Shown here one piece after another: positions 12,563 through 61,430 of a stretch of DNA of 64,000 nucleotides; within the stretch, counting starts at the first letter, position 1, and every line of letters begins with the position of its first letter. The position numbers and the translations under genes were made by a program. Source of the stretch: Eledone cirrhosa (taxonomy: Eukaryota); the NCBI GenBank assembly GCA_964016885.1, contig OZ024740.1, positions 113,088,001-113,152,000 of the forward strand, given 5' to 3'. A model generated the notes under the pieces. It was not told the DNA's origin, searched no databases, and saw only the letters and a list, made by a program, of their open reading frames with translations.

Positions 12563-13869
12563 ATGGCTGAGCCACGCCCCCCAGCGATATGTCTGCTGTC
12601 GTGCGACAACGACGTAGAAGTTGAGAGGAGCGCTGCAGCGAAATTAACACAAATTGATAACACAAACACCACCAAAAACAATGTAAACAAAGACACCAAT
12701 GATACCAAGGAGAACTCTAATTTTGAAAAAAATGACAGTAACAGCGACAACGAAAATACAGATAACAAAAAAAAATGACAACTGCAACAACAATATCAAC
12801 ACCACTAACATGAAAACAAATAGCGACAACACCAACAGCAACAATACCAACTGCACCGAGAACAACGGTGGCAACAAAGACAAATATGATAACAGCGACA
12901 GTGATGACAACAACAACAACAACAACGACAACGACAACAACACCCCCAACGAAAACAAGAAGAACACTTTCGCTGCGGCAGCAGCAAACAAGAGGCCATG
13001 CTTCAACATGGACCTCTCAAACAAAGATGAAAACTTGGTCCAGGCATGGAAGCTCATCAAGCAAGAGCAAACCTGGGCCAACTTAACTGTCCCGGTAGAA
13101 GCTATTGAGGCAGTGGTGTGCAGAACGGTGCATTATAGATGCATCTCAGCATAAACCAAAAGGGCAGCTTTAATCTCACAAGCAGATGTCGAAGTCGCGC
13201 TGAGGTGCATCAGAGAAGACACCCAGTACATAGAGAGGGGCAGACAGTACGGCACCATTTCGGTATTGTTCAAGTCAGAAGCCCTCGCTATGAAACACGC
13301 TATGACTCCTTGCAAAACCAGCAAGATCATAATATACCCCTCCCACATGGGAAAAAGAACGGCCCGTCTCCGCATTCCCAGAATCCCACCAGGACTTGAC
13401 ATGTGGTGGCTTCTGGGATGTGTGATTGTGGAGGGGACGGATACCGTCCCTATAGAAGTGACCAGAACGGCCAGAGAGTACTGGGCCGGGGTTGACCTGT
13501 AGATCCTTCTCCAGATCAGGCCCGAGAATGTGAAGACAATCCCGGACCACATCCGCCTTCAGAATGGGACGGTCATCCACATTATGATCGAAGGTGAAAG
13601 GCCGCATTGTTTTGTTTGTGGCACGAAGTGAAGATATACAAAAAGAGGGGGAAATTTTTAAATCGAGCACATTTCGCGTGCCGGAAGATTTGTTTCTGGT
13701 GCGAATGTCGCTCGATTTATACAACAAAATACGAGACAGCTTTCCTCGGGACGTGGGAACCTCGAACGTAAAACCCACTTCAAGACTTTTAAAGGGGTTC
13801 CCAAAAGAAACCCCACCAACTATGAAGGTCGAACAACCCGACCTTCACAAGAGCCCGGAAGGTAAGTAA
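12563..13869 (+). pseudogene. LINE ORF1 (gag-like), disrupted
   Basis: MAEPRPP start, Asn/Asp-rich N-terminus, then ARLRIPRIPP...IPDHIRLQNGTVIHIMIEGERPHCFVCGTK* (start of a CCHC knuckle). Frameshift at the A-run ~12770 and stops. Confidence 0.65.
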
Positions 13870-13901
13870 ACCTTTCCTCTCTCTATTTTTAACTTGCCAA
13901 C

Positions 13902-16900: not shown

Positions 16901-17053
16901 GGCCAATCCCTCATTAACTTTTTCAAGTTTCACTTGGAAAAGAAGGTGGGGGTGGAGAGAGAAGTGTTGCCCTCCAGTACATTTGCTGAAAGGTGCGTGA
17001 ATGTGGGGAGAATGGCCTGTGTGAGTGGGCCTACTCTGGTCATGCGGCTGTAG
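13902..17053 (+). pseudogene. LINE ORF2: APE endonuclease + reverse transcriptase + C-terminal Cys/His motif (Tx1/L1 type), disrupted
   Basis: LNVRGL, VSETR, IYAP, AGDWN, SYIDR, SDH, GYWKLN, LDQSKAFD, VRQGCPLS, AYADD, FLGV, GGLG, CPRC..ETVLHALVQC; frameshifts, stops and an internal deletion near 15010. Confidence 0.92.
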
Positions 17054-26850: not shown

Positions 26851-27135
26851 ATATATATATATATCCCACTTCTGACAAGTAGCTTTTCCAGGGCGATGCC
26901 CCAGCATGGCCTCAGCCATGGCTGGAAGAGGTAAAAGAGGAAAAGATATATATATGTGTAGTAAGGTTGCTTGAATGCGTCCATAGGCAGTATGCAGGTT
27001 GAGCACTCTGAGGAACTTACGAATCCAGAGTCAGGTTCGATCCACAAATAGATCGCACCTCGAGCTGTTCGCCGGAAAACAATTGTAATACGTTAATAAA
27101 TTGTGTTCCGATGCATCACTGATTCTTCGTTTTCC

Positions 27136-27167: not shown

Positions 27168-27409
27168 ATATATATATACGAAATAAGACAGTTATGTCTA
27201 TATGATAGTATTTATTACATTATACACATTTCAATGACATAGTGGGTAATTATTATATAACGGTTAAGTCAGTAACTGGCACCTGTGTGATATCATCAGA
27301 TTATAACAAAATTGTGTGAAGTGGTCATTGTCAACCGCTTTGGCTTGAACCCGTTTATCCTCGTGACCACGGAACGCAACTTTCACAGAAATACCATATT
27401 AATTAGCAA

Positions 27410-28626
27410 TTGTCCCCGTCAATACCTCACCAAGATGGAACACATGCTCTTCCAGTTCCTTTGGAAGGAGCTGGCTCCACTGGTTAGGAGATCTGTCTGC
27501 TGTCAGCACCCTTCCAACAGAGGGCTGGGATTGCCGTGGCTGATGATGCGCGAACACGCACTGAGGCTACGGCATCTCCAGGTATTCCGCAGCAAACAAC
27601 TGGTGTGGGCCCGGTTTGTGAGACAGTCCTTCCGCAACTTCTCTCGCTGACGGATCTGCAGTCCTGGTCAAGCGGAGACCGAAGAAAATGGGCGCCTGGC
27701 ACATTGAATGCGCTCAGGCGTTCACAGTCCTCTTTCAGACGGGCACAGCAATCAGTGGAGACTCCACTTCGACATTCTATAGAGGGTTAGTACGTTACAA
27801 GTGCGGCGACGTGCTCAGGGAGACTCTAGGCGTCGAAGACGACGAGCTCACAAGTCTGTTCGGTAGGACTTTCCGCCCGGGACCCATGGATAACTTCCAG
27901 AGGTCCCTGGCAATGCTACCGAGGAGCTCTACCAGTTCGAGACAAGATCTACAGGTACAGACGCCCCGGCAGGGATCCTTCAAAGAGGACGTGTCCAAGA
28001 TGCGAGCAGGACATTAAAACCGTCTTGCACGCAATTGTACACTGCCCGGGCGTAACCGACCTGTGGAGCTACGCAGAACAACTGCTGTCACGTATGGGAC
28101 AAATCCAGTTGACTGCCGAGTCCATAGTAAGGATCAAACCGCCAACTTCTTTCAAAAACGAAAGAGAGGCGGTTTTCCTCTATATAGTGGTTATGGTAAA
28201 AGAGATTATATGGTGGACGAGATTGACAGGACTGAGGACAGATGCCTTTCTCTCCGGACAACAACTCATTCCCTTCTTTAGGTACCACTTTAGAAGGAGA
28301 ATCAGAGTGGAGAGAGAGGCACTGCACCCCAGTAAATTTACTGAAAGGTGGGTGAATGTAGCAAAAATGGCCCGAGTGATTGGGCCTTCTCTGTATATAA
28401 ACCTGTAGGTTGAAGATGAGAGTAAAAGGAAGAAAGGAGCACTTGCACAACACGCTCCTGGAGTTGAGGGATGTTCTATCTACGGGGTATTAAACAACCC
28501 ATTTGTAACGCCTCGATTGTTGAATTTGTTTGTTTAAACATTTTTTTTACACGATTCCATGTAAAATCCCGGCATATGTCCTTGTATTGTCCCCATTTCT
28601 TGTGCGCCCTTGTGGCAGATAAAGAA

Positions 28627-34689: not shown

Positions 34690-35549
34690 GAAAAAGTTTG
34701 TCCTTCATCAGTGGCCTTCCAACCGTCGTAGGCATTTCATCGCTTTAAAGGCCATATACCTCAGGTTGGTGCGAGCAACGGCTAAAAAAAGTCGTTGGGA
34801 CACGTAAATAAAGGGGACGCCAGGGTAAACAAACAAAATGGTTTAAGCAACAGAAAGTGATGAAGAAGAAAGAAACAAGTCCCAGATTTCTATGAATATA
34901 AATTCGGTGGAATTGTGAACGAGAGAATAAAGACCATCAAACCTGGTTGAAATGTGAGCAAGGAAGGAATTTCGCACAGATCTAACGGGAGGAAGAAGGA
35001 AGAAGGGGTCTGGTCTGCGAATTCGGTAAACATAAGTTCTGTGAAGTCGCAGACGAGAAAGAGAGAGAGAAAAAAATTCATACCGGCTTGGGCAAGAGGG
35101 CGCGAGAAAAGGATTACGGACAGGTCAAACGGGAAGAAAGAGGAGGAGGAGAGGTAGTGACAGAGAATGAGTGAGTGAAAGGTGAGGAAGAGGCTAACAG
35201 AGAGAGAGAGACTGCTAGAAAGGGTAAAGATACCAAGAACGAAACAGACGGGTAGCAGCAGAGGAAAAAATATGTGTAAATATGATAATAATGTAGCTGC
35301 GGCGTTGCAAATGGGTTACATATGAAAAAGTTTGTCCTTCATCAGTGGCCTTCCAACCGTCGTAGGCATTTCATCGCATTAAAGGCCATATACCTCAGGT
35401 TGGTGCGAGCAACGGCTAAAAAAAGTCGTTGGGACACGTAAATAAAGGGGACGCTAGGGTAAACAAACAAAATGGTTTAAGCAACAGAAAGTGATGAAGA
35501 AGAAAGAAACAAGTCCCAGATTTCTATGAATATAAATTCGGTGGAATCG

Positions 35550-35553
<4 letters not shown>
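34686..35553. mobile_element. Non-coding element with 234-bp terminal direct repeats, inserted in (TA)n
   Basis: 34686-34919 and 35320-35553 are near-identical (period 634 bp); a diverged inverted copy lies at ~61237-61430. Confidence 0.7.
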
Positions 35554-35941: not shown

Positions 35942-35970
<29 letters not shown>

Positions 35971-35978
<8 letters not shown>

Positions 35979-37037
35979 CGTAAGATAAGAAAATTATAAA
36001 ATTATAAAAAAATTATAAAATTGACTTACTTACTAAAATATCACTTCTAACTAATTAGTTTCTGGAATGGAGTAAATATATTTTCCGAAGAACATATTGA
36101 AAAGCATTCCGTCGTCAGGAAAGTCTATTTTCGTGTAAGTTACCAGGCATAGCGAGGACTCTGGAAACTTATTAATAAGTTTCCAGAGTCCTCGCTATGC
36201 CTGGTAACTTACACGAAAATAGACTTTCCCGACGACGGAATGCTTTTCAATATGTTCTTCGGAAAATATATTTACTCCATTCCAGAAACTAATTAGTTGG
36301 AAGTGATATTTTAGTAAGTAAGTCAATTTTATAATTTTTTTATAATTTTATAATTTTCTTAGCTTACGTCTCTCATATTATTGTTCTGCAACCCCATGCA
36401 TTGAACCACAATGTTACTAAGACAAAACCTATATATTTGCTAGCATTGATATGCATCTGTATGTATATAAATGTTACTAGATATAAATTCTTTATAATTA
36501 TCTCCAATTCATTTGTCGAGCAATATTGGCCATGACTGCTGCTATAGTAGTGGGCAGGCCACTGTCTTATTAACAACACGCTTTCCACTGATTGACCTCG
36601 ATGTCACGTGATTGATTCTTTTTGAATTTGCCACAGACGTAGAGGCAGTGATTTTCTCAATGGCTATGATTTCAGTCCACGCTTCGCTATTTCCTTTCCA
36701 CTGAATTATTTTTTTTAATAAGTTTCAAGAGTCCTCGCTATGCCTGGTAACTTACACGAAAATAGACTTTCCTGACGACGGAATGCTTTTCAATATGTTC
36801 TTCGGAAAATATATTTACTCCATTCCAGAAACTAATTAGTTGGAAGTGATATTTTAGTAAGTAAGTCAATTTTATAATTTTTTTATAATTTTATAATTTT
36901 CTTATCTTACGTCTCTCATATTATTGTTCTGCAACCCCATGCATTGAACCACAATGTTACTAAGACAAAACCTATATATTTGCTAGCAATGATATGCATC
37001 TGTATGTATATAAATGTTACTAGATATAAATTCTTTA
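35971..37037 (+). mobile_element. Non-autonomous Penelope-type/retrozyme-like element A: inverted pLTR + two direct pLTRs
   Basis: ~200-bp-arm palindrome centred at 36173/36174; 36174-36494 is repeated at ~36716-37037; three hammerhead copies; (TA)n flanks. Confidence 0.8.
36766..36847 (+). ncRNA. Type I minimal hammerhead ribozyme (element A, intact copy)
   Basis: Stem I ACTTTC/GGAAGT; CTGACGA 36772-36778; stem II GGAATG/CATTCC; GAAA 36828-36831; perfect palindrome ACTAATTAGT as stem III; GUU site after 36841. Confidence 0.75.
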
Positions 37038-37055
37038 TATATATATATATATATA

Positions 37056-37347
37056 TGTATTGAAATTTCCGTTGAAAACAGAAAAGGTCATAGAAGTGAA
37101 GAGTGCTCTATGTAAGTATCAGAGCAAAATTTAATGTATAAAAATCAATACAATATAATTACCTCATTACCAGAGGTTTCCCGAATGAGGCGAATTTTTT
37201 TTTTTTTTTTTTTGATGAGACTTTCCAAGTATTTACCCATGTTTTATATTGCCTCGTCTGACGAACGAATGAAGACGTTTCTTTCGTATTCGCCTCATTC
37301 GGGAAACCTCTGGTAATGAGGTAATTATATTGTATTGATTTTTATAC

Positions 37348-37352
<5 letters not shown>
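37056..37352. mobile_element. Fold-back element C (Penelope pLTR-derived)
   Basis: Inverted arms ~37132-37197 / 37288-37352, unpaired tail on the left, (TA)n flanks. Confidence 0.75.
37248..37325 (+). ncRNA. Type I hammerhead ribozyme (element C)
   Basis: 10-bp stem I ATTGCCTCGT/ATGAGGTAAT; CTGACGA 37258-37264; stem II CGAATGA/TCATTCG; GAAA 37303-37306; stem III ACC-TCT-GGT; GUA site after 37315. Confidence 0.8.
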
Positions 37353-37415: not shown

Positions 37416-37418
<3 letters not shown>

Positions 37419-37910
37419 GATATTAATAAATGGAAACTATATTTATAAAACCATATTTATTTCATTATACATATTTCAGGGATACCACATTAAATTATGG
37501 TATGCCTTCATCAGACAAAATACAATATATAACAGTTTTACAAATAGGTTTGACGTACCCTTTAAAATACAGCCAATATTTTTGGAGGCTGTCTGGATAG
37601 TGATTTGTTCATATAATCATTATATGAACAAATCACTATCCAGACAGTCTCCAAAAATAATGGCTGTATTTTAAAGGGTACGTCAAACCTATTTGTAAAA
37701 CTGTTATATATTGTATTTTGTCTGATGAAGGCATACCATAATTTAATGTGGTATCCCTGAAATATGTATAATGAAATAAATATGGTTTTATAAATATAGT
37801 TTCCATTTATTAATATCGTATATCTACTCCAAAAATTTGTCGAGTGCTTTATATCAGTTATAAAAATATTTACTTGTTGTATCCCAACAATTTTAAATAG
37901 AACTTTTGCA
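37416..37910 (+). mobile_element. Fold-back element B (200-bp arms, 1-nt loop) plus 3' tail
   Basis: Palindrome centred at 37618 (37418 pairs with 37818); unpaired tail 37824-37910; (TA)n flanks. Confidence 0.85.
37714..37778 (+). ncRNA. Type I minimal hammerhead ribozyme (element B; mirror copy on minus strand at 37458-37522)
   Basis: Stem I TATTTTGT/ATGAAATA; CTGATGA 37722-37728; stem II AGG-C-ATACCATA/TGTGGTAT-C-CCT; GAAA 37759-37762; self-complementary ATATGTAT; AUA site after 37770. Confidence 0.75.
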
Positions 37911-37921: not shown

Positions 37922-38080
37922 ATAAACTTTAATATAGAAATGGCTTCTACATGATTTCTTTTGAATGAAACAATTCTCATCCTGTAGAAGCCATTTCTAT
38001 ATTAAACTTTATGTTTACACTCTACTAATGTATTGAGTACCTTACTAACTATGGTTATTCCCGATTAAACTTCTGACTCA
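37922..38080 (+). mobile_element. Short fold-back element with tail
   Basis: 30-bp arms 37922-37951 / 37983-38012, then a tail with an ACTC..GAGTAC stem. Confidence 0.65.
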
Positions 38081-38107: not shown

Positions 38108-38317
38108 ATCCCTCTGTGGTTGAAGGTTGAGATGAAAGAGTACACAACACGAAGCAGAGTTTTAATATTCATGTTATTAAGGTTAAATAATGAGTCTTGT
38201 TTTTCTGGTGTTTCGAATGTTTATGACAGAGTCAGCACATAATCTGATGACCCTGTAATAAACAGGCGAAACGCCAGAGTAACAAGACCCACTATTTAGC
38301 CTTAATAAAATGAATAC
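38108..38317. mobile_element. Fold-back element D with hammerhead core lacking the 5' strand of stem I
   Basis: Diverged inverted arms ~38165-38234 / 38248-38316; CTGATGA 38244-38250, stem II CCTGT/ACAGG, GAAA 38268-38271. Confidence 0.65.
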
Positions 38318-38361: not shown

Positions 38362-39301
38362 TAAAATATATATATATATATAGTTTTGCGAGGTTTTTTA
38401 ATATGAAATCGTGTGTCGAAACAAATATTGTTATACTTGTGTTGGGTCATATTTGTGTAATAATATTGCCAGAATTAATAACAGAATATACTCACTGTTT
38501 GATTGGTTTTCGCTTCTGTGTCGGTTAATTTAATTTATTCGGTCCTCAATGTTACCATTGACTGACCAACGGTCAAAAATACAGATACAATATATAGTCT
38601 AACAAAGTTCTTTCGTTGCACATCTGCAACATCGTCAGTGGTGCTATTATGTTTCCTCCCGTTGCATTGTATGCATACGACATCTTTATTTAGTCTGTTT
38701 ATTTATAGGCAAATCAGAGAGGCCAGCGAAATAGAACTTAGAAGGCCAAGGCGAAACAGAAAAAATGAATGGAATAACAACACCCAAACAAACAACACTG
38801 ACCTAAGAGAAGTATAAATAAATAAATAAATAAATACATACACAAGCACAATAACAACAAACACATATAAACACACACTAGTAAACTAAGATAGAATACA
38901 ATAACCAATACACAGTCACCCAAACACGAACACACATCAAACAAAACACTATACACACACGCAAACGCATGCGCAGAGAAGACACAAAAATAAACAAAAT
39001 AAATAAATAAACAGACTAAATAAAGATGGCGTACGCATACAATGCAACGGGAGGAAACATAATAGCACCACTGACGATGTTGCAGATGTGCAATGAAAGA
39101 ACTTTGTTAGACTATATATATATGTGTTTGTGTCTATATTGTATCTGTATTTTTGACCGGTGGTCAGTCAATGGTAACATTGAGGACCGAATAAATTAAA
39201 TTAACCGATATAAAGGACACAGAAGCGAAAACCAACCAAACAGTGAGTGTGTTCTGTTATTCTGGCAATATTATTACACAAATATGACCCTCCCCAAGTA
39301 T

Positions 39302-39310
<9 letters not shown>
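38362..39310. mobile_element. Fold-back element E (~290-bp arms around a ~290-bp spacer) with hammerhead-like cores
   Basis: Arms ~38424-38706 / 38998-39310; CTGACGA 39071-39077, stem II GTTGCA/TGCAAY, GAAA 39095-39098; stem I imperfect. Confidence 0.75.
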
Positions 39311-39344
<34 letters not shown>

Positions 39345-39595
39345 AGTACAGAATAAGCAAAACTATGTTCAAAACATTTTATTGCTGACAATCGTTTCTT
39401 CCAAACTTTCGGCTGATATAATCGGAGCACTAGCAAAGTTTAGACATATAATTAACCTTCTATTCCACAGAACAATCGTATAAATACATAGATGTTAGTG
39501 TTGTCATTAACAGTGTCATATTTAAAGTATAAATTATATTATTATTGTTATTAACTGCTCCATACTGTTGAGCTAACATACATAACATTACCAGT

Positions 39596-42150
39596 ATGCT
39601 GATCAAAGATTATCTTCCTATGTCTACTAAGAACATCCCAATACCATCTAGGGATACGTACGAAAAATTATTGATTATTAGTGTCAACTCATTTATCAAT
39701 AGAGTGAGATGGAGGACATTCCATTACGATAGAAACCGAACAGACAAAACAGGGATGGAATCAATTTCGACTCATACGGGGTTAAAACTTTTAAAACCCC
39801 ACTTTATTAAACTCTTTCGAAAATGATTTAATAAAACTAGTTAAGAACATAAGGTACAGAAAACATCCTAATAGAAATAACACCTTCTTAAACAACCTTA
39901 ACTCCACTATTAAAAGATTTAATAAAAATAAGAAAATTCTAATACATGCTGATAAAACTAATAATATATATATAGCCTAGATTACGAAACATCTAGAAAA
40001 TTTATATATAAAGAACTGCATAGGAGCTATAAGAAAACCACTATTAGAAACCTATAAGATATAAATATAGAAGGCCATAGTATAGTATGTAAATTAGAAC
40101 TTCAGAGATATACACAGCGATGCACCCCTAACCCCCCAAGATTCTCTCTGAAAGACCATAATGAAGACTTTAATAGTAACCCATTTATAAAACTAATTTG
40201 CCCTTCCAAATCTGACATTGGAATTATCAGCAAAAAATATTAGACAGAATCGTCTCCCAATTTAAGCATAAAATATATCCTAACCTGTGGGGAAATACTG
40301 GTGAAGTTATTGAATGGTTCAATGATATTAATGAGAATAAAAATAAAAAAATTATATAATTTGATATTAATTCGTACTACACCTCTATTTCTCCTATCCT
40401 ATTAAACAAGGCATTAATTATGGCTATGAACAATAGTCACCTTACTAGATCCCAAATTGATGTCATCCTTGCGACCCGTAAAACCATAATTGTATTTGAA
40501 GATCAATTATGGACCCGCAAAGATACACCTAACAACTTTGACATAACTATGGGATCTAGTGACACGGCGCAAGTCACTGATTTGTTGGTTCTATATCTCT
40601 TAAATGAAATTTATAAGAATCTGCCCTATCTCAATGGTGGTTTATACCGCGATGATGCACTACTACTTATTGACTATAAAAAATAATATAGAAAGAACTA
40701 GGAAACAATTGCATAACATATTTAAAAACTTCAACTTAAGTATTACCTTAGATAAAAACACTAAAAACGTTAACTTCCTTGGTGCTACCCTTTGCGTGGA
40801 CTCTAAAATATATACACCTTTTCATAAACCAAACGAAAAACTACTTTATGTAGATACCAAATCTACCCCCCCCCCCCTAAATCTATATTAAACTCAATTA
40901 CTAAAGGAATATCAAATGGAATTTCTACTCTATCATATAATTGTTTCTACTTTTGACACAAAGCCAGTACATTACTCGTACTTTATTTTATCGACCCCGT
41001 GAGGATGAAAGGCAAATTTAACTTCGGCGGGATGACACTATATTTAAAAGTAAATCCCAATACTATAATGAGTCCTTAGCTCGATCAAGCCATAAAAATA
41101 AAATTAGATTTTTACCTATAATATTCACTTAGTTACAACATTATTTCTCACAATATGGACCTGAATAAAAGTAATAAAAGTACTAGCCACTCTAACTCTA
41201 GTACGAAGGGTAATATCAAACTTAACTCGCACCAAAATAAACACTCCAATAATAATATAAACAGCAATATAAACAATACCTCAAATAACATTACAAAAAA
41301 CAAAAATAGAAGAACTAATACATTTTTCAATCCGCCTTTTAATCTAAACGTCTCTACCAACTTGCCTAAGGCTTTCTTCTCAATCTTAGAAAAACACTTC
41401 TCAGTCGGCCACAAATACCATAATCTTATCAATAAAAATACCATTAAAATCTCTTACTCTATCACACCTAACATCGCGTACCATATAGCTATTAATAATA
41501 AAAGGAAGATTAATAATTATTTCCAACTAATTAAATCGCAACAGAGGGTGAACTTACATAACAACATAGTACCAGAGAATTCTAGTAGCAATAATAATAA
41601 TAGTAATAGCACTAATCAAATTAATAACAATGGGAATGGTAATCATCATTACCCTAATGCTATCCCTAACAACCATGCATCTACACACCCTACTAACCAG
41701 CAAATAAACAACCAAAATAACTGTAACTGTAGAACAAATAGAACTTTCCCCTTAGGACAAAATTGCGTAATCAAAGACATTATTTACTCATGCACATTCA
41801 ATACAAACAACAGTTCAAAAACATATATCGGTTCAACTACGAACTGCTTCAAGACCAGATATAACTCGCATCTCCAAACTTTCAAAAATCGCAATCTAGT
41901 CAACTCCACTTCTTTATCTAACTACATACACTCTCTGAAAACTAAGAATAGACCATATACACTTCAATGGGAAGTAATACAAAGGGCCGCATCGTATAAA
42001 CCACCGAATAAATTATGTAACCTCTGTCTTGTAGAGACTCGCACTATAATCTATTCTAAGCTAAACCTTTTAAATAGAAAATCAGAAATGTTTTCCATGT
42101 TCCAACACTATCACCGACACTCTTTCCACAACTTCAAACCTAGCTGTTAG
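39596..42150 (+). pseudogene. Penelope-like reverse transcriptase + GIY-YIG endonuclease, disrupted
   Basis: STKNIPIP, RVRWR, HADKTNN, FDINSYY, ITMGS, GGLYRDD, VNFLG, FFNPPF, CNCR..PL..NC linker, IIYSC..TYIGST..FKTRYNSH, CNLCLVE..LLNRKSE. The CxC linker and C-terminal CxxC resemble Hydra-type PLEs (tentative). Frameshifts and a SINE insertion. Confidence 0.88.
40937..41032 (-). mobile_element. SINE fragment nested in the Penelope ORF
   Basis: ATAATTGTTTCTACTTTTG...TCGACCCCGTGAGGATGAAAGGCAAATTTAACTTCGGCGGGAT. Confidence 0.85.
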
Positions 42151-43222
42151 TATATAATATTGTCAGATCTGGATTCATCACCACCATTAACACTTTACCT
42201 CTGGGTTTTATCAGCATATAATTACCCCCACAGCATCACATTCTATGATCAGCTCATTCCTCTACTTACCTCCTATTTATCTACAATAACTATTGGGAAT
42301 AAACATAAAGTTACCACCATTTAATATAACTACAATAACTTCCTTACTAATATTTTATTCATTTAATTAATATATGGGTAGGTAGTGATAAAATGAGACC
42401 TTTAAGATTGTATTTAAAATTAAATATATATATTTAAAAACAAATAGCATTATATAAAAGAATTCGTTATAACAATATATTGTATATTAAATAAAATTTA
42501 AATAATTGGAGTTGTAAACAACTATACATTTTGCTCTTATATACAAATTAATCGCCAATTACCTCCCCTTTCACATTAGCTTCCCTTAGTATAGATCTCT
42601 AATCACTTCCTGAAATTAAACCGTTAGACAGATCACTCCAGATCAACTTGAACCCTTGATAAGATTGTAATAGGACCACTATACAATCCATAGTTGTAGC
42701 AACTAATAAACATTTACTAAAATATAACCAATGTAATGGAAAGGAAAACCTTAATATTAATACTCACAACACATGCACATTTGAACATTACCGGAACAAT
42801 TATCACATTGCATCCACCATAAACTTCATAGAAACTGCTTTTCATACCCACGCACCTCTGTCTACTTAATATGCTTTTATACCTGCATTGTATTATGTGA
42901 TACATTTGCCATATTGTGATATATATGTTTAGTACCATTGCTTGTTTCTTACCTGGTTATTCTGTACATGCCTAATACCTCTGCACTCTTTCTATACGTT
43001 TGTATATGTACCGCTAATGTCCTCATTTTGCGAGTAACTTTCTTCTTTAATTCCTCTATAATTGTTGTATTATTCTTTTATAATCTTTGTCGCATCCACT
43101 GATACTGACCACATCATCTTCACTCTTTAAATATGACACTGTTAATGACAACACTAACATCTATGTATCTTTATGATTGTTCTGTGGAATAGGAGGTTAA
43201 TTATATGTCTAAACTTTGCTAG

Positions 43223-43269
43223 TGCTCCGATGGATCCAAACGAAAGCTTGGAAGAAACGATTGTCAGCA
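43223..43269 (+). ncRNA. Degenerate hammerhead ribozyme in the Penelope 3' pLTR
   Basis: TGCT/AGCA stem I, mutated core CCGATGG, stem II TCCAA/TTGGA, GAAA 43254-43257, ACGATTGT stem III, GUC site. Confidence 0.55.
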
Positions 43270-43496
43270 ATAACATGTTTTGAACATAGTTTTGATTATT
43301 CTGTAATTTATTTCCGGCTCTGTAAAACATCTGATGTATTTATATTGAGGTATTTTTCTTACTGGTAATAAGGTGGTAATGAATTACTGACCTTGCTTGT
43401 TTATAATTATATATAGTGTATATATAAGTATAAATAATATTATTATTATTATATATATATATATAGAAATGATAACACACACGAGAGAGAGAGAAA

Positions 43497-43564
<68 letters not shown>

Positions 43565-43950
43565 ATCAATATACAGGGAAATCCACCAGTGTATGGAATC
43601 TATAAAATACGAAAGGTGAGGTAGACGGATCATAATTAAAAATATAAATCAAAATGGATTTACCCACCTTTAGAACTATATATCACACACGTACAAACCA
43701 AAAGAGATTTGTTTCGCCAAAAGATTAGTGAATGGAATGAAAACACCCAGGTTCATCAGCGCGTGTTAAGTAAATACATTCCAGACAACTCTAAGAAAAA
43801 TTTGACACGTGGTAGAGAGAAGTGAATATGTGCGAAAGACAGTAGACTAGTGGCCTGGGTGGAATGAGCGGCTAGAAATCGCAGCCCCAAACCACTGAAA
43901 GAGGAGTGCTCTACCGAACAGAGAGAGAGAGAGAGAGGGAGAGAGAGAGA

Positions 43951-44063: not shown

Positions 44064-44199
44064 AGAGTGTGTGTGTGTGTGGGTTTATCAACGTACAGGG
44101 AAAACCACCAGTATATGGAATCTATATATATGTATATAATCATCATCAGAATCCTCTTCGTTTTTACGCACACACACGCGCATATATATATACACACAT

Positions 44200-44653: not shown

Positions 44654-45360
44654 ATGATATTGGAAAGCCAATATATATATACGTGTATGTGTGTGTGTCT
44701 ATGTACGTGTATATATATATATGTGTTTGTGTGTGTGGGTGTCTGTGGCCTATATACACTGGTTACAGACACACACACACACATACATCCTGTCCTAACA
44801 CAAGTTATAAGATACATATAACTTAATATTCAGTCACCAAATTCAAGCTAGATACAATAATGCTGTATTCGATTCTTTGAAGTCACCTGTCATAATTTCA
44901 TTCAACAAAACCACCAGCTTTCTCTCTCTCACAATCACTATCGGCGTTTGAATTCACATTCCAATGGTACCTTACTTTCAAAGAATTTTCCCATTATGTG
45001 CTGCTTTGGCTATTTATAAAGGTATCCGAAAAAAAACCGCGTATCTCGGGAACCCGCGGTCCGATTTACGCGAAACTTGTCTTTTCACTGTTTTATTCAC
45101 AAGTATTTTCACAAAGAAAATATCAAATCATTTTTCACTAATAGCTATGCAATTACTCCACTTCAAAATTCTTTTTTCTATATCTCTATTGATGCTTGAC
45201 TGTTTATTCTGAAAGATATTTCTGCTTAAAAAGTTGCAATGTTAATGAAAAGCTGGTTTTATTTACAAAATTTTGAAAGAAATTATTCTTACTTGTCTTA
45301 GCTTTTCCTTTTCCTTTCATTTTCTGACGTCGGAATCAACATTTTCTCATATTTACGCTG

Positions 45361-48300
45361 TTACAGTTTGTTCAAAAGAATGCTTTTGATGACAACATTC
45401 TTAGGTGACTGGGTATCCTTCAGAAACACTCTGACATTTTCTTTTCGTTTTCCGCAGCTAAGGGCTACATACAGTTGACCGTGTTGGAATACAGGTCGTT
45501 CCAGATAAACCAAGACGTTTTCCATAGTTTGTTCTTGTGCTTTATGAATAGTCATACGATTGAACTGGGAATTGGCTTCGCTGCAAAGGGATATCCCACC
45601 TTCGGATAGATTAATTCTTATTCTAGGTATCATAACGATCTCATTTCTGAAAGCAATAGTGTTGATTCTTGCTACTATGAGATTGTCGTGCAGTTCTTCC
45701 ACGATCACGCGCGTTCCATTACAGAGCCTTGGAGGATTCAAGTTTCTCATAAGAATTATTGGCGATCTTTTTTCAATTCCAGGTTATGTGGTGGAAGTCC
45801 TGATAGTTCAACCGAATCAAGGAATTCAGTCGGGAAATGAGTGGCATTGTCACCATCACTCACAGAATTATAGGATCGGTACTCTTTTATGGTTCCAGGG
45901 AAGCGTCTGATACAGGAGCAATTGATGCTTCTCATCATTTCATTGAGAGGTACTAAGATGCAATTGTTCGAAAACACTTCAGTTGGATTGTCGAATGAGG
46001 GGTAGATGAAATCAATACATTCTTCCATAGTTGTTGCTTGGAGAACGATTTATTTTTGCAAAATAATTTCCTCATTTTCAGTTTTTTTTATCTTATCTTC
46101 TCCAATATCCAATAGGAACTGTGCATAGTTTCCTGCTCCGCCACCCAATCGCATGTTTGTCTTCAATTGAAATCTTTTGAAGCTTCGCCATAAGTAGGAT
46201 TTTTTAATGCAGGCGTTTTCCACGTCCGCTTCATTTCCCCTTTTCATTAAGAAGCTGACGGAAATCGCCACAGCAAATTGTCAAAATTCCACCGAATCCC
46301 TCATTGGTGTCGCATATGTCATGCAGAGTGAGGTCAACAGCTTCGAAACTTTCCCTCCGAATCATAGGACACTCATCCCAAACAATCAGCCTTGTATGCT
46401 AGAAGAGGTTTGCCGTCGTTGAGTTTTTATCAATGTTGCACAGATCATTTTCTTTCACTACTATCGGTATTTTGAACGTAGAATGCGCTGTTCTTCCACC
46501 AGGCATCTGTGTTGTGGTAATGCCAGATGACGCAACAGCAATAGCCACGTCACCGTTTCCCCTGACTTTTGAAAGAATTAAGTTAATCAGGAATGTCTTT
46601 CCTGTTCCACCTGGAGCGTCAATGAAAATCAATGCAGATGTGTTCGTCTCTAAACTGTTACAAACGAAGTCGTACACGTGTTTTTGTTCACTATTCAATA
46701 GAGGTTCCGTCTCTTCTATAAATCGTCGCTGCTCTTCTCTGGTGTATTGCAATTATGCAATAACTCAAAATTGCCAATATCCTGATTAGTAACAATATTA
46801 TTTGGCCTTGGCAAGTTAAAGTCACTAAGACTTTTGCCCAGGTCGTTAAGTTTGTCTTCAAAATACAGAAGACATTGATCATAATGTCTCTCGTTAATCA
46901 AAAGTTTAGAGTTTCTGGTAGCCCTTTTTTCTATTTGAAGGTAATCCTCAGACAGCGAATGCTTAAATAGAGCCCATAAAGCACTGGAATTTTCAATTTC
47001 TGTATTTGTGAGGAGCACGATGAATAGGTCTCTCATGGCTTTGGGAAGCCTTGTTCGCTCAGCATCTTCCAGAGTCTGCTGCCAATGACCATCCGATTGA
47101 AGCAAACCTTTCTCTCTGCAGAGGTCTTTGAATAATTTCAGGAGTTCTCCATCACACATTTTCAAAGAGTTGAAGGATACTGGCCCTTTGAGGTGATGCA
47201 GAAGGAGTCTTAAATAACACAGGTCACCACTTCGTGGAGAAACAGTGTATACTCGTCCCAAAACGTTCGCCTCAAAAATCCCTGGATACTGCTCAACCTT
47301 TCTCCTTTCCCATCTCTTATTACTCCAAGTGTAAAACTTTGGGACATCGGCATAATACAATGTTTTTGCAAACGGATCGCGATCGCAAAGATCCATGAAC
47401 TCAGTCAGAGTCGTCTTAGCCATGTTATTGTTTACTTTAACAGCAGAATTGACCCGAAAGAAGATTTGATTTTCCTCAGGTAGATGAATTTGAAGGTGAC
47501 CTACGACCGGTTATCTCTCATGAATTGGAAATCCAAGTACCAAGGCAACAGCTTCTGAAGGACCGATATATCTTCCTGTTAAATACTGTATTATCTCATC
47601 TTCCCTGTTCACTCCAAACATTGCCTGATCACTGCCCTTCATGGTATATTTGATAACGTATTTGATCGATTTCACGGAAGAGCACATCTCTACGTTTAGG
47701 TGGCAGTTGAATAGTTTTAATAGTTTCATATTGTAGAGAACCACCCATTCCGAAGTTATATTTCGGCTTCCCCTTCCTTCTTGGTGACCCTCAAATCCTC
47801 CCATTCCTGGAGACCGTCTTCTGTACACAGGATAAGAGTCCTCTCCACACAATGTATATTCATTGAAAGGCTTAGGGTACCGCTTATTGCACATTCCATC
47901 TTTCCAACATGGCGAATTGTTAGAGCAATTCGGACCGTGAATCATGTGCTTCAGCACCAATTCATGACCCTCTGGATCTTTATTTGGATCTGGTATTTCG
48001 GCTTGAACAAATTTATCATATTCCTGCAGTCTGGGCTTGGAGGCTTCATTGAGCCATAGCAAACAGTGCACATGCGGAAGACCTCGCTTTTGATATTCGA
48101 CTGTCAGCACGTAAGCAATGCACTTGCCAAATAGGCCATCTACTCCAGTAAGATACTTTCTTAACAGTTTCCGCTTCAGGTCAAATACTCTGGCAATTAA
48201 ATCTAGCTTGTCATGTGGCTTCTGATTCAGGAATAGGTTTTGCCGGATTTCATTGTGATGAAGAACGAAGGATTGCCGTACTTCCGTATGTACATAATGG

Positions 48301-49820
48301 CATCCTGGCTTCGCTCCATCATATATCTCGGTCGACCGACAAATGTGGAAGAGAGTATGATTCGCCTGCCTATATTGCGATAATCGTCATCATCATTCAA
48401 TGCGTCAGTAAGGCCATTGTATGTTGTAGATCGCAATGATGTTTGATTCATTCGGATGTATTGCAGTCTATCTCCTTCAATCTTCGCATTCTCATGGTTC
48501 ATTATTCGATAGGATTAGTAGCGAATTGGCGTCAACTTCTTGTTGTTGCTCATTAACAGCTCATGATGCCATCCGTCATCGCCAAAAGGAAAACATAGAA
48601 CATACTGCAAACTGTCATAGGACCGATGGGACTCTGAGATTATTTGCAATTGTCCGCCTTTTTCTTTCAACACAATGTGCCGTGCTTTTGGTTGAAGTTC
48701 GGTGCTGTTTTGTATAATGACGGCAACTTCATTTGCAGTTTGTGCATTGAATCTTCTCTCATGTTCCTTTGCTGGTCTCCTACCAGGATCAATAATAGTC
48801 GAAACTTCGGGAATATTTTTAATTTGTTCTTTTGCCATTCGAAATGAAGCAACGTAAGGGTTATATTGTCTGAGTATTATTTCCAATAATTCAACTATGT
48901 CGCGCTGAATGCCATCGTTATGGAGTATCCTGATCCTCAAATCATCAGTATCCTGAGGATCCAAGAAGTAAATTTGAAGAAATGGGGGTTGTTCGTTGGG
49001 ATTAGGGTTTAAGGAACCGATGTAATGGTGAATTTGACATGAATAACGATAGAAGGATTCCATCCACTCATTGAGGACCGAACTTCTTCGGCACCAAAAG
49101 ATGCCATTTGGAACAGGCAGTTGTATTGTCTGAGGTTCTTTCTGAACTCGTTTGCCCTAGGTTGATCAGTACTAAATAAACTGTGAAGTTCCTGGGGGTA
49201 AAGGCTGCAGATTCCCCAACCTGACTTTTCCATTCATACAGCAAAAGTTAGCAGTTTCACCATGAATAAGCATTGCATGACAACAGACACATCTTATTCA
49301 TCTTTCCAACATCAGCAGAAAGGACACGTCGTTGAACTGTCCTTGCTCTATCCCTAATGGTTTGTTGGCAAAGACGTTCAGTTCTCCGAGCGTCCGATTC
49401 ATAATTTCTCCTGCTTCTGTCTCTTTCCCTCTGTTCCGCCAGACGCGCAGCTCTCCGACTATCCGATTCATGATCTCTCCTGCTTCTGTCTCTTTCCCTC
49501 TGTTCCGCCAGACGCTCAGCTCTCTGACCATCAGATTCATGATTTCTCCTTCTTCTGTCTCTTTCCCTCTGTTCCGCCAGACGCTCAGCTCTCCGACCAT
49601 CCGATTCATGATCTCTCCTGCTTCTGTCTCTTTCCCTCTGTTCCGCCAGACGCGCAGCCCTTGCTTTATCAGTCTCATCGATCCGTCTATTCGTATGCCT
49701 GTCCCGATCTTGTTGGCGTTGACCACTATCTTGCTCACTTTCTTCGGCTCTCCTTAGCCGTTCTTTCTATCCACTATCGATAGACCAACCAGATGTTTTC
49801 TTTCTTCCTCGTCGGGGCAT
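45361..49820 (-). pseudogene. Helitron RepHel: STPR-like repeats, Zn finger, HUH/Y2 Rep and Pif1-type helicase, frameshifted
   Basis: MPRRGRK start; GKMNKMCLCCHA..ETANFCCMNGKV; VEYQKRGLPHVH; KYVIKYTMKG; FIDAPGGTGKTF; GGRTAHSTFKIP; RNLNPPRLCNGTR; MTIHKAQ; HGQLYVALS. Confidence 0.93.
49372..49660 (-). repeat. 69-bp coding tandem repeat (~4 units; 23-aa STPR-like)
   Basis: Period 69 (49411 vs 49480); the frame continuous with the Zn finger reads ETDKARAARLAEQRERDRSRRDH / ESDGRRAERLAEQRERDR.. Confidence 0.8.
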
Positions 49821-51694: not shown

Positions 51695-52015
51695 ACAGCA
51701 CCACCAGTTCTCTTCCATTTTCATTCTCTGTCTCCTCTCCCTCTTTCTGTCTCTCTTTCAATCTACTCTCTCACAACCAGTATCTCTTTCTCTCTATCTT
51801 TTTCTCTCTTTGTTTACTTTGTTTATGAAGTCACCAGGAAAAACCTCATATGTTGGGAACCCGTGGTCCGATTTACGCGAAATTTGTTTTGTTCCATTTG
51901 TGTTCCCATTTCAGGGTCAACTTCCTTTCAAAGTATTTTCCCATTATGCGCCCTTTTGGCTGTATTACATTACAGATAAGCAAGCAAGCAATCAATCACA
52001 GACTTTTAGTATTAT
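51350..52015 (-). mobile_element. Non-autonomous Helitron of the same family, directly abutting the autonomous copy
   Basis: CTAGACCACTCGTGAACGTTGGGTCA duplicates 44263-44290; its far end (51850-52015) duplicates 51195-51348. Confidence 0.85.
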
Positions 52016-52198
52016 AAAAAGTGTATACACCATTCTAATATATATATTGCCTGTACAGGTAATCAAAGTGTATATACATTTTTCGGGGAAACCATATATA
52101 TATATATATATACCTGGGTCCTGAAAAATGTATACACCATTCTAATATATATATTGCCTGTACAGGTGATCAAAGTGTGTATACATTTTTCCGGGACA

Positions 52199-52241
<43 letters not shown>

Positions 52242-52966
52242 GGTGTCCCTAAAACTGTATACACCATTCTAATATATATATTGCCTGTACAGGTAATCAA
52301 AGTGTGTATACATTTTATGGGGACACCATATATATATATATCTGGGTCCTGAAAAATGTATACGCCATTCTAATATATATATATTGGTTGTATAGGTAAT
52401 CAAAGTGTGTATACATTTTTCCGGGTCACCATATATATATAAATATATATATATACCGGTGTCCCTAAAACGGTATACACCATTCTAATATATATATTGC
52501 CTGTACAGGTAATCAAAGTGTGTATACATTTTTCGGGGACACCATATATATATATATACCGGTTTCCCTAAAATATATATACACCATTCTAATATATATA
52601 TTGCCCGTACAGGTAATCAAAGTGTGTATACATTTTTAGGGGACACCATATATATATATATATATATATATATATCGGGGTCCCTAAAAATGTATACACC
52701 ATTCTAATATATATATATTGCCTGTACAGGTAATCAAAGTGTGTATACATTTTTCGGGGAAACCATATATATATATACCTGGGTCCCTAAAAATGTATAC
52801 ACCATTCTAATATATATATTGCCTGTACAGGTAATCAAAGTGTGTATATGCTTTTCCGGGACACCAAATATATATATATACCGGTGTTCCTAAAAATGTA
52901 TACACCATTCTAATATATATATTGCTTGTACAGGTAATCAAAGTGTGCATACATTTTTCGGGGACA

Positions 52967-53041
<75 letters not shown>

Positions 53042-53125
53042 GGGGTCCCTAAATATGTATACACCATTCTAATATATATAGTGCCTGTACAGGTAATCAA
53101 AGTGTGTATACATTTTTCGGGGACA

Positions 53126-53174
<49 letters not shown>

Positions 53175-53778
53175 GGGGTCCCTAAAAGTGTATACAGCAT
53201 TTTAATATATATATTGTCTGTACAGGTAATCAAAGTGTGTATACATTTTTCGGGGACACCATATATTTATATATATATATACCGGGGTCCCTAAAAATGT
53301 ATACATCATTCTAATATATATATTGCCTGTACAGGTAATCAAAGTGTGTATACATTTTTCGGGGACACCATATATTTATATATATATACCGGGGTCCCTA
53401 AAAATGTATACATCATTCTAATATATATATTGCCTGTACAGGTAATCAAAGTGAGTATACATTTTTCGGAGAAACCATATATATATATACCGGGGTCCCT
53501 AAAAATGTATACACCATTCTAATATATATATTGCCTGTACAGGTAATCAAAGTGAGTATACATTTTTCGGAGAAACGATATATATATATACCTGGGTCCT
53601 GAAAAATGTATACACCATTCTAATATATATATTCGTTGTACAGGTAATCAGAGTGTGTATACATTTTTCCGGGACACCATATATATATATACCGGTGTCC
53701 CTAAAAATGTATACACCATTCTAATATATATATATGGCATGTACAGGTAATCAAATTGTGTATCATTTTTCGGGGAGA

Positions 53779-53821
<43 letters not shown>

Positions 53822-54748
53822 CAGGGTCCCTAAACATGTATACACCATTCTAATATATATATTGCCTGTACAGATAATCAAAGTGTGTATACATTTTTCG
53901 GGGACACCATATATATATATATATATACCGGGGTCCCTAAAAATGCATACACCATTCTAATATATATATTGCCTGTACAGGTAATCAAAGTGTGTATACG
54001 TTTTTCCGGGACACCATATATATATATATATACCGGTGTCCCTAAAAATGTATACACCACTCTAATATATATATTGCCTGTACAGTTAATCAAAGTGTGT
54101 ATACATTTTTCGGGGACACCATATATATATATATATACCGGGGTCCCTAAAAATGTATACACCATTTTAAGATATATATTGCCTGTACAGGTAATCAAAG
54201 TGTGTATACATTTTTCGGGGACACCATATATTTATATATATATACCGGGGTCCCTAAAAATGTATACATCATTCTAATATATATATTGCCTGTACAGGTA
54301 ATCAAAGTGTGTATACATTTTTCGGGGACACCATATATATATACCGGGGTCCCTAAAAATGTATACACCATTCTAATATATATAGTGCCTGTACAGGTAA
54401 TCAAAGTGTGTATACTTTTTTCGGGGAAACCATATATATATATATATATATATGGGTCCTGAAAAATGTATACGCCATTCTAATATATATATTGTCTGTA
54501 CAGGTAATCAAAGTGTGTATACATTTTTCGGGGACACCATATATTTATATATATATACCGGGGTCCCTAAAAATGTATACATCATTCTAATATATATATT
54601 GCCTGTACAAATAATCAAAGTGTGTATACATTTTTCGGGGACACCATATTTATATATATACCGGGGTCCTTAAAAATGTATACACCATTCTAATATATAT
54701 ATATTGTCTGTACAGGTAATCAAAGTGTGTATACATTTTTCGGGGACA

Positions 54749-54791
<43 letters not shown>

Positions 54792-55079
54792 GGGGTCCCT
54801 AAAAATGTATAGATCATTCTAATATATATATTGCCTGTACAGGTAATCAAAGTGTGTATACATTTTTCGGGGAAACCATATATATATATACCTGGGTCCT
54901 GATAAATGTATACACCATTCTAATATATATATTGCCTGTACAGGTAATCAAAGTGTGTATACGTTTTTCCGGGACACCATATATATATATATACCGGGGG
55001 TCCCTAAAATGTATACACCATTCTAATATATATATTGCCTGCACAGATAATCAAAGTGTGTATACATTTTTCGGGGACA

Positions 55080-55124
<45 letters not shown>

Positions 55125-55313
55125 GGGGTCCCTAAAAATGTATACACCATTCTAATATATATATTGCCTGTACAGGTAATCAAAGTGTGTATACGTTTCT
55201 CCGGGACACCATATATATATATATACCGGTGTCCCTAAAAATGTATACAGCATTCTAATATATATATTGCCTTTACAGGTAATCAAAGTGTGTATACATT
55301 TTTCGGGGACACC

Positions 55314-55344
<31 letters not shown>

Positions 55345-55655
55345 CCGGGGTCTCTAAAAATGTATACACCATTCTAATATATTTATTGCCTGTACATATA
55401 ATGAAAGTGTGTATACATTTTTCGGGGACAACATATATATATATATATATATACCGGGGTCCCTCAAAATGTATACACCATTCTAATATATATATTGCCT
55501 GTACAGGTAATCAAAGTGTGTATACATTTTTCCGGGACACCATATATATATATATATATACCGGGGTCCCTAAAAATGTATACACCATTTTAATATATAT
55601 ATTGCCTGTAGAGGTAATCAAAGTGTGTATACATTTTTGGGGAGACAACCTGTAT
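52016..55655. repeat. Tandem array of ~33 Tc1/mariner-type MITE units separated by variable (TA)n
   Basis: Unit ~88 bp: CCGGGGTCCCTAAAAATGTATACAC...GTGTATACATTTTTCGGGGACACCA, imperfect TIRs, TA-flanked. Confidence 0.88.
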
Positions 55656-55669
55656 ATACACAAATATGA

Positions 55670-55700: not shown

Positions 55701-56350
55701 CATAGGAGGTCAAATCCTATGTGGGTATGGCGGAGGGCCGATTTAAGGAACGCTTCCTGAACCACCAGTCGACCTTTAGGTACCCGGAAAGACGTTCCAC
55801 CACGAAACTTGCGAGCCACGTATGGTCCCTCAAGGACTCAAGTATAGACTACTCCATTCAATGGAAAGCCATCACTAAGTCCAAGCCATACGCAAGGGAA
55901 AATCCGTCGTCTGGACTATGTATTGATGAACGAATAAATATTCTAAAGAGATTATGCAATAGTGATTGCCTAAACACGAGAAATTAATTCTTCACACGTT
56001 GTCCACATGTCTCGAAACACCTCTTACATAACTACAAATCCCCGGATTGAATCACAATAACATCCTAATTTTCTTATCAACTAGAAACTTTTCGGACTTT
56101 CGCAGTTATCTCCCTTACATCTCTCGCACGATTTTTATTATTGCCTCTGAAGTGACGGTTTCTGCGCATGCGCATTCGTACGGTTGTCGTTCCTGTTCCG
56201 TATAACCATGTACATTACGAGCTGAGGATCCGCTATGGTGAAATAATTGTTCTCGGTATGGTGAACTAACTGTTGTGTAACCATTTCTACCTAACTCGTC
56301 CCATGGACTGAGTGCTCTACCACCACAGATATTACCTTCCAGTGTTCTAC

Positions 56351-61056: not shown

Positions 61057-61065
<9 letters not shown>

Positions 61066-61197
61066 AGATCAAAAGATGGTTAAAGGAGTTAACCATCTTT
61101 TGATCTTATATTATGCATACTCCAGTCCCACAAACTGTAGAGTGCTTCTTATCCGATATCTGCATTGCTTTATTGTACTACAATAAAACTCACCTCC

Positions 61198-61236: not shown

Positions 61237-61239
<3 letters not shown>

Positions 61240-61424
61240 TTGTCCCCCTCGCTTTACGCGATTTACTGGTCCCAATAATTCTTTTTAGTTATTGCTCGCA
61301 CCAACCCGAAGTATCTGATTTGTAATGCGATGAAATACCAATGATGGTTGGAAAATCACTGACGAAGGACTATTTTTATCATATGTAACCTATGTGCAAC
61401 CACACAGTATTCTTCTTTCTTCTC

Positions 61425-61430
<6 letters not shown>
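61237..61430 (+). mobile_element. Diverged inverted copy of the 34686/35320 repeat family
   Basis: TTGCTCGCACCAACC..GCGATGAAAT..GGTTGGAA..CACTGACGAAGGAC..CATATGTAACC matches the reverse complement of 35300-35450. Confidence 0.7.

Follow-up and report, generated by a model that had tools for sequence, protein, structure and literature searches.

What sets the ends of Penelope-like element (PLE) copies, both tailed and tail-less, is the question raised by this locus. The window (the whole 64-kb stretch of DNA analysed here) contains a cluster of (TA)n-flanked fold-backs together with one decayed full-length PLE (element G) at 35.9-43.5 kb, and more PLE pieces at 27.0, 55.7-56.4 and 61.1 kb. Internal initiation is already known for PLEs, as are their tails, inverted pLTRs and hammerheads (PMC11167929, PMC8557442, PMC3846280 and PMC4209133). 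The origin of the optional tail and of the inverted copies has stood as a question for some two decades, with only one element studied in vitro. The comparisons below suggest that a small bulged hairpin is most likely the setter of both ends of Hydra-clade PLE copies. A conserved PLE hairpin that fixes where a copy starts had been proposed in a preliminary description of this DNA; the proposal is supported by the enrichment of the hairpin at copy ends, by its narrow register and by published Hydra consensi. Full-text literature searches, with most subscription papers and Repbase reports outside their scope, returned no description of the hairpin, its co-variation or a two-signal rule.

The bulged hairpin and its copies in the window

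The hairpin is composed of RCTC, a co-varying upper stem of 2-4 bp, a bulge of 1-2 nt on the 3' side, and GAGY-RCT; the upper stem and the bulge are additions to the preliminary description. A regular-expression scan for the strict motif (RCTC...GAGYRCT) revealed 6 copies in the window, four on the + strand (37826-37848, 38019-38041, 56294-56316 and 61119-61146) and two on the - strand (37125..37102 and 27031..27002). All five full copies of the preliminary description were found again, and its two eroded versions are also present: GAG reads GTG at 38160 on the - strand, and two of the four lower pairs are lost at 43317 on the + strand. Its coordinates stood; the copy at 56294, which it had listed under fold-back elements, is a solo 3' end. 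Moreover, it had missed one strict copy and three variant stems on the + strand (36383, 36501 and 39557).

The frequency of the strict motif was compared with 500 dinucleotide shuffles of the 49,648 unmasked nt. Six copies were observed versus a mean of 1.63, and six were reached in 4/500 shuffles; when the spacer was widened to 8-22, the observed count was reached in 15/500. Neither the stem alone (54 stem-only matches; 99/500 shuffles) nor the heptamer alone (286/500) was enriched in the unmasked nt of the window. Since the strict motif was picked post hoc and the excess over shuffled sequence is modest, its frequency is only modest evidence; the position beside copy ends is strong evidence. 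A descriptor was also derived from published elements, using their short consensus with up to 3 mismatches, an upper stem of at least 2 bp and a bulge of 1-2 nt; it is not specific by itself (133 hits in 108,852 background positions). The descriptor hit at -60443 was treated as false; it lies in what we take to be a non-LTR coding end.

An upper stem of 2-4 bp stacked on RCTC and followed by a 3' bulge of 1-2 nt was present in 9 of 11 copies, the exceptions being stem 1 of element G and the stem of element K. The upper-stem sequences differ in every copy. Upper stems of at least 3 bp were found in 6 of 9 copies versus 6 of 40 control RCTC..GAGY matches (p=0.004); the nine copies were chosen by position or motif, and the two found via their structure (stem 1 of element T, and 39557) were left out. 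Loop shuffles of the spacer gave a combined p=0.003. The lower stem co-varies: at its first pair, 6 copies have A-U and 3 have G-C, and its second pair is a compensatory U-A in stem 1 of T (GTTC/GAAC). Mismatches occur in the lower stems of T stem 2 and G stem 1. The near-palindrome GAG-YR-CTY has a variable centre (TG, CA or TA). An origin of these centres by CpG decay of a perfect palindrome was set aside, because the Y tracks its pairing with R.

Minimum-energy folding gave the bulged shape for D, F, I, J and both stems of T, and a plain stem for C, K and 39557; H did not fold on its own. The hairpins are weak in isolation (z from -2.6 to +0.3), which is what a protein-bound element would show. 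Wherever the strand is decidable, the stem sits on the sense strand of the hammerhead or ORF, with the bulge on the 3' side. The hammerhead core lies upstream of the stem by 49 nt (C and H), 50 nt (I), 59 nt (G), 63 nt (D) and 117 nt (T), whereas F and J are too short to have room for one. Outside the motif, the families are unalignable save for weak matches, and the 5' strands were misaligned by MAFFT on 9 tails. A covariance model trained on 4 copies of equal length gave no strong hits beyond these 4; C, H, J, K and T were missed at E up to 10.

Other classes of hairpin were also considered. None of the stems matched among the best 150 of 498 Rfam results, all 150 being miRNA models below the gathering score, and ARAGORN reported 0 tRNA genes on the stems, which were run as a test for tRNA-derived SINEs. 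The opposite strand of the copies at 27031 and 56294 looks tRNA-like by eye; an origin from a tRNA-SINE was rejected for both, given the ARAGORN result, the (TA)n flanks and the hammerhead or EN context. The 3' hairpin of Helitrons stands about 10-12 nt before the CTRR end. Here about 29-60 nt separate the stems from a microsatellite downstream, and the stems lie behind hammerheads and PLE ORFs; a Helitron hairpin was thus rejected.

Copy ends and their distance from the stem

Fold-back D (37418..37823) has (TA)n on both sides, arms that agree to 99% and meet with a 1-nt spacer (0 nt in T), and hammerhead cores at 37722-37762 (+) and 37514-37474 (-). Its inverted arm ends 2-7 nt upstream of the hairpin at 37826..37848 (+), which has a 4-bp lower stem, a 3-bp upper stem, a 2-nt 3' bulge and the heptamer GAGTGCT. 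Hairpin C (37102..37125, -; GCTC/GAGC, 2-bp upper stem, 2-nt bulge) is preceded at 6-8 nt by the end of an opposite copy (37289-37349), and a hammerhead core (37258-37306, +) lies within this copy. In F, the arms (37925-38009) end 6-9 nt upstream of a hairpin with a 3-bp upper stem and a 2-nt bulge (38019..38041, +). The eroded hairpin H (38139..38160, -) has lost one lower pair and has a G-U-rich upper stem; the arms (38167-38315), with a hammerhead core at 38244-38271 (+), end 5-6 nt upstream of it. The small fold-back J (61058-61114) ends 4-7 nt upstream of its hairpin (61119..61146, +; 4-bp upper stem, 2-nt bulge).

The stems at 56294 (I) and 27031 (K) belong to solo 3' ends and not to fold-backs. 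Hairpin I (56294..56316, +; 4-bp upper stem, 1-nt bulge) stands at such an end, 50 nt past a hammerhead core (56222-56243), and is followed by (TA)n. Hairpin K (27002..27031, -) matches the strict motif but has no bulged upper stem; it lies in a fragment with (TA)n flanks and a hammerhead that appears eroded by eye.

Two stems are present in each of the elements T and G. Element T (35969..37039) consists of an inverted arm, a pLTR, a spacer and a tandem pLTR, with hammerhead cores at 36229-36265 (+), 36772-36808 (+) and 36118-36082 (-). Its stem 1 (36383..36409, +; GTTC/GAAC, 4-bp upper stem, 2-nt bulge) recurs near 36926 in the tandem copy, and its stem 2 lies at 36501..36524 (+; 3-bp upper stem, 2-nt bulge). 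The inverted arm (35969-36173) ends 4-8 nt upstream of stem 1, and the tandem copy (36712-37039), which includes stem 1, ends 4-8 nt upstream of stem 2. At the junction, a 4-nt palindromic microhomology (TTAA) is shared with the unit, without a loop.

Element G carries stem 1 at 43317..43339 (+), which is strongly eroded and lies 59 nt past an eroded hammerhead core (about 43227-43257, by eye), and stem 2 in the 5' UTR at 39557..39576 (+; 2-bp upper stem, 2-nt bulge, eroded 3' flank). T stem 1 and the stem at 39557 were located by looking for the structure. The inverted arm of G (about 39341-39527) ends 5 nt upstream of stem 1 and is a copy of a region 3.6 kb from its junction. The two-stem model predicted that the 3' end of G should run past stem 1 to just before 39557, and it was found there: 43426-43452 repeats 39525-39551 with 2 mismatches in 27 (6 in the next-best match elsewhere), and the copy stops 5-8 nt upstream of stem 2, although the stretch is AT-rich, which tempers the match. 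Both end types thus occur in T and in G, each stem having its own end 4-8 nt upstream.

Altogether, 12 duplicated copy ends were each aligned to the longer partner. A descriptor hit was found within -3..+15 nt at 7 of them, with 0.023 expected per end (binomial p≈2e-9). By inspection, 9/12 ends stop just before a stem; those at 36383 and 43317 have a stem by inspection where the descriptor fails. At maximal identity, the ends lie 2-6 nt from the stem, or 2-9 nt if TA microhomology to the target is allowed. A gap of 6 nt fits 8 of the 9 ends, while gaps of 5 or 7 nt fit 7/9 each, and the register is best put as 6 plus or minus 1 nt. It is blurred by the TA microhomology (P=0.14 for uniform gaps of 0-5 nt, 0.0005 for 0-15). 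The preliminary description had given a gap of about 3-9 nt for inverted arms; this range is replaced by the values above, and arm endpoints are indeed correlated with the motif. The rule also applies to direct (tandem) ends and not to inverted arms alone, and nine ends in 7 unalignable families keep a gap of 5-7 nt.

No stem was found at three of the 12 duplicated ends (8622-8790, 38385-39305 and 34690-35552), in keeping with the earlier remark that two elements lack the motif. The stemless tails at 8757-8800 (+) and 38380-38428 (-) are alike (local score 23, 1/2000 shuffles; the pair was chosen post hoc), and this likeness is possibly a second tail signal. The third stemless element (34690-35552, -) and 61237-61430 (+) belong to a (TA)n-flanked family with 229-nt direct repeats (98.7%). 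By eye, this family has GAAA upstream of a CTGATGA core, as in a permuted or half-core hammerhead, and no bulged stem at its end. Further pieces were noted on the - strand. A hammerhead-bearing piece at 43563-43920 (core 43759-43712) has the motif's 3' half at its start (43911), preceded by (TC)n, and a separate short copy of its last 42 nt lies at 44085-44126. Moreover, a clean hammerhead core is located at the window edge (63944-63967), with no bulged stem seen downstream.

Clade membership and published relatives

Craig et al. 2021 (PMC8557442) defined the Hydra clade by a C-terminal GIY-YIG, DKT in place of DKG, RWK, a CxC-x5-C linker, the lack of a CCHH cysteine pair inside GIY-YIG, and CxxC/CxH round the conserved E and N. 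In the same account, its members have a hammerhead in the pLTR, (TA)n targets, a unit of generally <3 kb and inverted 5'-truncated copies. The decayed frames of G (ORF 39596..42147, +) encode an RT, a linker and then a C-terminal GIY-YIG domain. They contain RWR, DKT, a CNC-x5 linker and CNLC (CxxC) before the conserved E; the third Cys of the linker is absent (CNC-x5-F) and CxH is eroded. In element I, the decayed GIY-YIG endonuclease end is kept (55709..56050, +; a match to P0001 with a pairwise E of 7e-9), with CPH (CxH) retained and CxxC eroded. No CxxC was found inside the GIY-YIG core, and the core in the G frames is without a cysteine pair. P0001 is an intact relative of 803 aa, which is 55% identical over the RT piece and has the full Hydra-clade set including DKT and RWR (not RWK). 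It was the only one of 107 candidates retained in the homolog search with the RT piece, while the search with the EN region retained 0 of 58. Pfam gave no significant family for the three PLE fragments of the window or for P0001; PF26215 is listed for P0001 in the homolog table.

Both G (hammerhead eroded, by eye) and I (hammerhead at 56222-56243) have (TA)n flanks, and G appears similar to Hydra-1_Obim by eye. At about 3.9 kb (39525-43452), G exceeds the general <3 kb of the clade, a trait that is not strict; its length includes a SINE inserted in the ORF (about 40937-41033), an Asn-rich linker and a long 3' UTR. The Asn-rich insert between RT and EN in G (41500-41720) is like in kind to one in P0001, and recalls the N-rich inserts of Adineta Penelope elements in PMC3846280. 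Judging from their protein motifs and context, the elements are most likely diverged families of one clade (Hydra), rather than the unrelated fold-backs of the preliminary description. The non-coding D, C, F, H, J, K and T were assigned to this clade by context alone, namely the (TA)n flanks, the hammerheads (in D, C, H and T) and the stem.

The comparison set comprised the six new Hydra consensi (14,198 nt) in the supplement of Craig et al. (PMC8557442), examined by eye; Hydra-1_Ajap, Hydra-2_Ajap and Hydra-1_Crog were inspected whole, and the other three at their ends and heptamer hits. The same hairpin was found in 4 of the 6, from coral, sea cucumber and copepod. There are four strict matches across three consensi, all with upper stems of 4-6 bp and 2-nt bulges, versus about 0.23 expected in 14,198 nt at the window shuffle rate; two near matches occur in a fourth. 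For example, the strict motif stands at the end of Hydra-2_Amil (coral), 52 nt past the hammerhead with a 6-bp upper stem and a 2-nt bulge, and at the end of Hydra-2_Ajap (sea cucumber), 47 nt past the hammerhead with a 4-bp upper stem and a 2-nt bulge. Hydra-1_Ajap starts with two copies 61 nt apart, which have 5- and 4-bp upper stems, the second lying 51 nt before the ATG. In Hydra-1_Crog (copepod), a stem with one substitution, as in H, is located 56 nt past the hammerhead; the 5' end of the consensus lies exactly 6 nt before another stem, which has a compensatory C-G at pair 3 and is 70 nt from the ATG. Hydra-1_Obim and Hydra-1_Amil gave partial matches only, at the ends and heptamer hits inspected.

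By these consensus sequences, the hairpin is conserved in at least three other phyla. The stem spacing is 118 nt in T, 141 nt in G, 61 nt in Hydra-1_Ajap and about 75 nt in Hydra-1_Crog if both ends abut. The published consensi suggest that a unit has two stems, each of which would set one end. The Naiad/Chlamys elements were rejected as carriers of the hairpin, as matches are at chance level: by eye, RCTC stands 10-20 nt upstream of 7 among 49 heptamer hits (about chance for ~430 kb), and none of these 7 has a 3-bp upper stem with a 1-2 nt bulge, in a scan that left out hits spanning line breaks and -CC endings. The supplement of PMC3846280 gave no searchable hit for the motif. The hammerhead stem III of several Hydra elements in file S2 of PMC8557442 reads ACTY-N-RAGT, the letters of the lower stem. 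An alternative pairing of the ribozyme with the tail hairpin is conceivable; ACTY-N-RAGT is not kept in the window copies.

Proposed origin of the two ends and competing explanations

The reading that we consider likely is that the bulged hairpin is an RNA signal: the Hydra-clade PLE RT would bind either of two tandem stems and start about 6 nt upstream, stem 1 giving tail-less and stem 2 tailed ends. In a tandem transcript, the 5' UTR of a unit would come after the pLTR and hammerhead, and would hold a tandem pair of bulged hairpins spaced by about 60-140 nt, with the second one lying about 40-70 nt ahead of the start codon. The RT/GIY-YIG protein would bind a hairpin and nick (TA)n DNA, and the cDNA would start about 6 (5-7) nt 5' of that hairpin. 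Starting at stem 1 would give a tail-less end, whereas a start at stem 2 would copy stem 1 and the spacer, which would be the 'tail'. If both DNA ends of the break were primed, two cDNAs could meet head to head via a short microhomology, and a fold-back with a tail on one side only would result. Two stems per unit would thus account for the tail, and one rule (a start about 6 nt before a stem) would cover all nine ends. Since the T junction has microhomology without a loop and the G arm comes from 3.6 kb off, two cDNAs are a simpler explanation than a snap-back, and are favoured, no more. We infer that the RT binds the RNA, that the ends reflect initiation and not cleavage, and that priming is twin; the reader of the hairpin might be the RT on RNA or the endonuclease on DNA.

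The same ends might also be set by a signal in DNA. A single cDNA would then fold back and be extended, and the GIY-YIG EN would read the hairpin or GAG-YR-CTY in DNA and cut about 6 nt upstream, setting the tail-less end. Several observations agree with this: tails were ascribed to EN-mediated resolution (Craig et al. 2021, PMC8557442), recognition by the Penelope EN depends on the tail (Pyatkov 2004, cited in PMC11167929), junction palindromes were taken as self-priming (Arkhipova et al. 2013, PMC3846280), and the D and T arms meet with spacers of 1 and 0 nt. However, two rules of equal offset would be needed, one for the RT start before stem 2 and one for the cut before stem 1. The tailed direct ends of T and G keep the same gap. 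The palindrome centre varies and its Y tracks its pairing with R, and the sense strand carries the stem throughout, its bulge always on the 3' side, so we regard a DNA signal as unlikely. It seems quite improbable that the hairpin causes the transcript to be cut or terminated about 6 nt upstream, with ordinary target-primed reverse transcription then starting from the RNA 3' end. Such processing would predict identical genomic ends, and Poseidon RNA-seq read ends coincide with the RT start sites (PMC11167929); however, in vitro the Poseidon RT initiates internally regardless of the 3' extension and depends on downstream RNA (PMC11167929), and the hammerhead site lies 40-60 nt further upstream, where the copies do not end.

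A role of the hairpin as a 5' UTR promoter or in translation control, with an incidental nearness to copy ends, would suit the position of stem 2 at 40-70 nt before the start codon in G, Hydra-1_Ajap and Hydra-1_Crog, and Penelope has an internal promoter at the pLTR boundary (PMC8557442). This explanation is very improbable, as it leaves unexplained both the 5-7 nt gap of nine ends in 7 unalignable families and why each of two stems has its own end. Chance matches picked by eye in AT-rich repeats are scarcely credible. The frequency excess is modest (4/500) and loose versions are common (54 stem-only matches), but chance is effectively refuted by the positional p≈2e-9 and by the published consensi from three other phyla; the independent upper-stem test (6/9 versus 6/40) also argues against it.

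The RNA signal proposed here has a partial parallel in the Poseidon protein of Anolis (Frangieh et al. 2024, PMC11167929), whose cDNA starts internally at two tail-bounding sites. According to the same paper, the Poseidon RT needs RNA 3' of the start, cuts AT-rich DNA, extends both strands and was modelled as a dimer. Two alternative 3' ends bounding an optional tail are likewise seen, from sequence alone, in T and G, and AT-rich targets and an upstream hammerhead are shared (PMC11167929). Poseidon belongs to another clade with another sequence: its start falls in a stem-loop that is AC-rich and sits inside the ORF, whereas the start here would be about 6 nt before a 5' UTR hairpin, and no RCTC..GAGYRCT was seen by eye in the 361-nt template (PMC11167929). 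In the passages of PMC11167929 on this stem-loop, cross-family conservation or co-variation is not mentioned. As the Poseidon template is without the motif, its biochemistry serves as an analogy only. By eye, the 361-nt template has two related GAAAG..ACAAC motifs 34 nt apart, cf. a tail of 30-40 nt (PMC11167929).

For the Hydra clade, Craig et al. 2021 (PMC8557442) do not use the word 'hairpin' in their main text (0 occurrences) and ascribe tails of 30-40 bp to EN resolution; the stem spacings reported here are 61-141 nt. According to Arkhipova et al. 2013 (PMC3846280), Penelope likewise has head-to-head inverted copies and junction palindromes, and one of its pLTRs may carry a tail. The explanation offered there was self-priming on an antisense template, and an end-setting motif is not mentioned in the sections concerned (PMC3846280).

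PLE RTs are sister to telomerase RT. Structured RNA, located 3' of the template or next to it, fixes the RT start in several other systems, including the 3' UTR structure of R2, the telomerase RNA anchors and the bulged stem-loop epsilon of hepadnaviruses. To our knowledge, a doubled signal that gives two alternative ends has no counterpart among the template-positioning RNAs of other RTs. A broader model is possible, though somewhat doubtful: a dimeric RT might bind two tandem hairpins and prime on either side of a (TA)n break; the tail would then be as long as the signal spacing, and fold-backs would be twin-primed. The rule might be PLE-wide with clade-specific signals (cf. the paired GAAAG..ACAAC motifs of the Poseidon template), a telomerase-like anchor across cnidarians, echinoderms, arthropods and this genome.

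A defined co-varying motif at a fixed distance from both end types is directly testable by moving, breaking and rescuing it. The hairpin could also help to define where elements begin and end when (TA)n targets obscure this, and could serve as a marker for non-coding Hydra-clade derivatives and as a minimal cargo signal for the RTs most closely related to telomerase.

The window as a whole is microsatellite-rich animal DNA with SINEs and remains of LINE and Helitron elements. A decayed Helitron with Rep-like and PIF1 helicase domains was found at 45360-49770 (-), and decayed non-LTR retrotransposons at 1129-2750, 13150-17050 and 27290-28410 (+). RT and endonuclease domains were confirmed in the first two of these, and the third is 71% similar to 13150-17050. 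Large tandem arrays are located at 5844-7210 (24-nt units) and 52015-55661 (units of about 105 nt).
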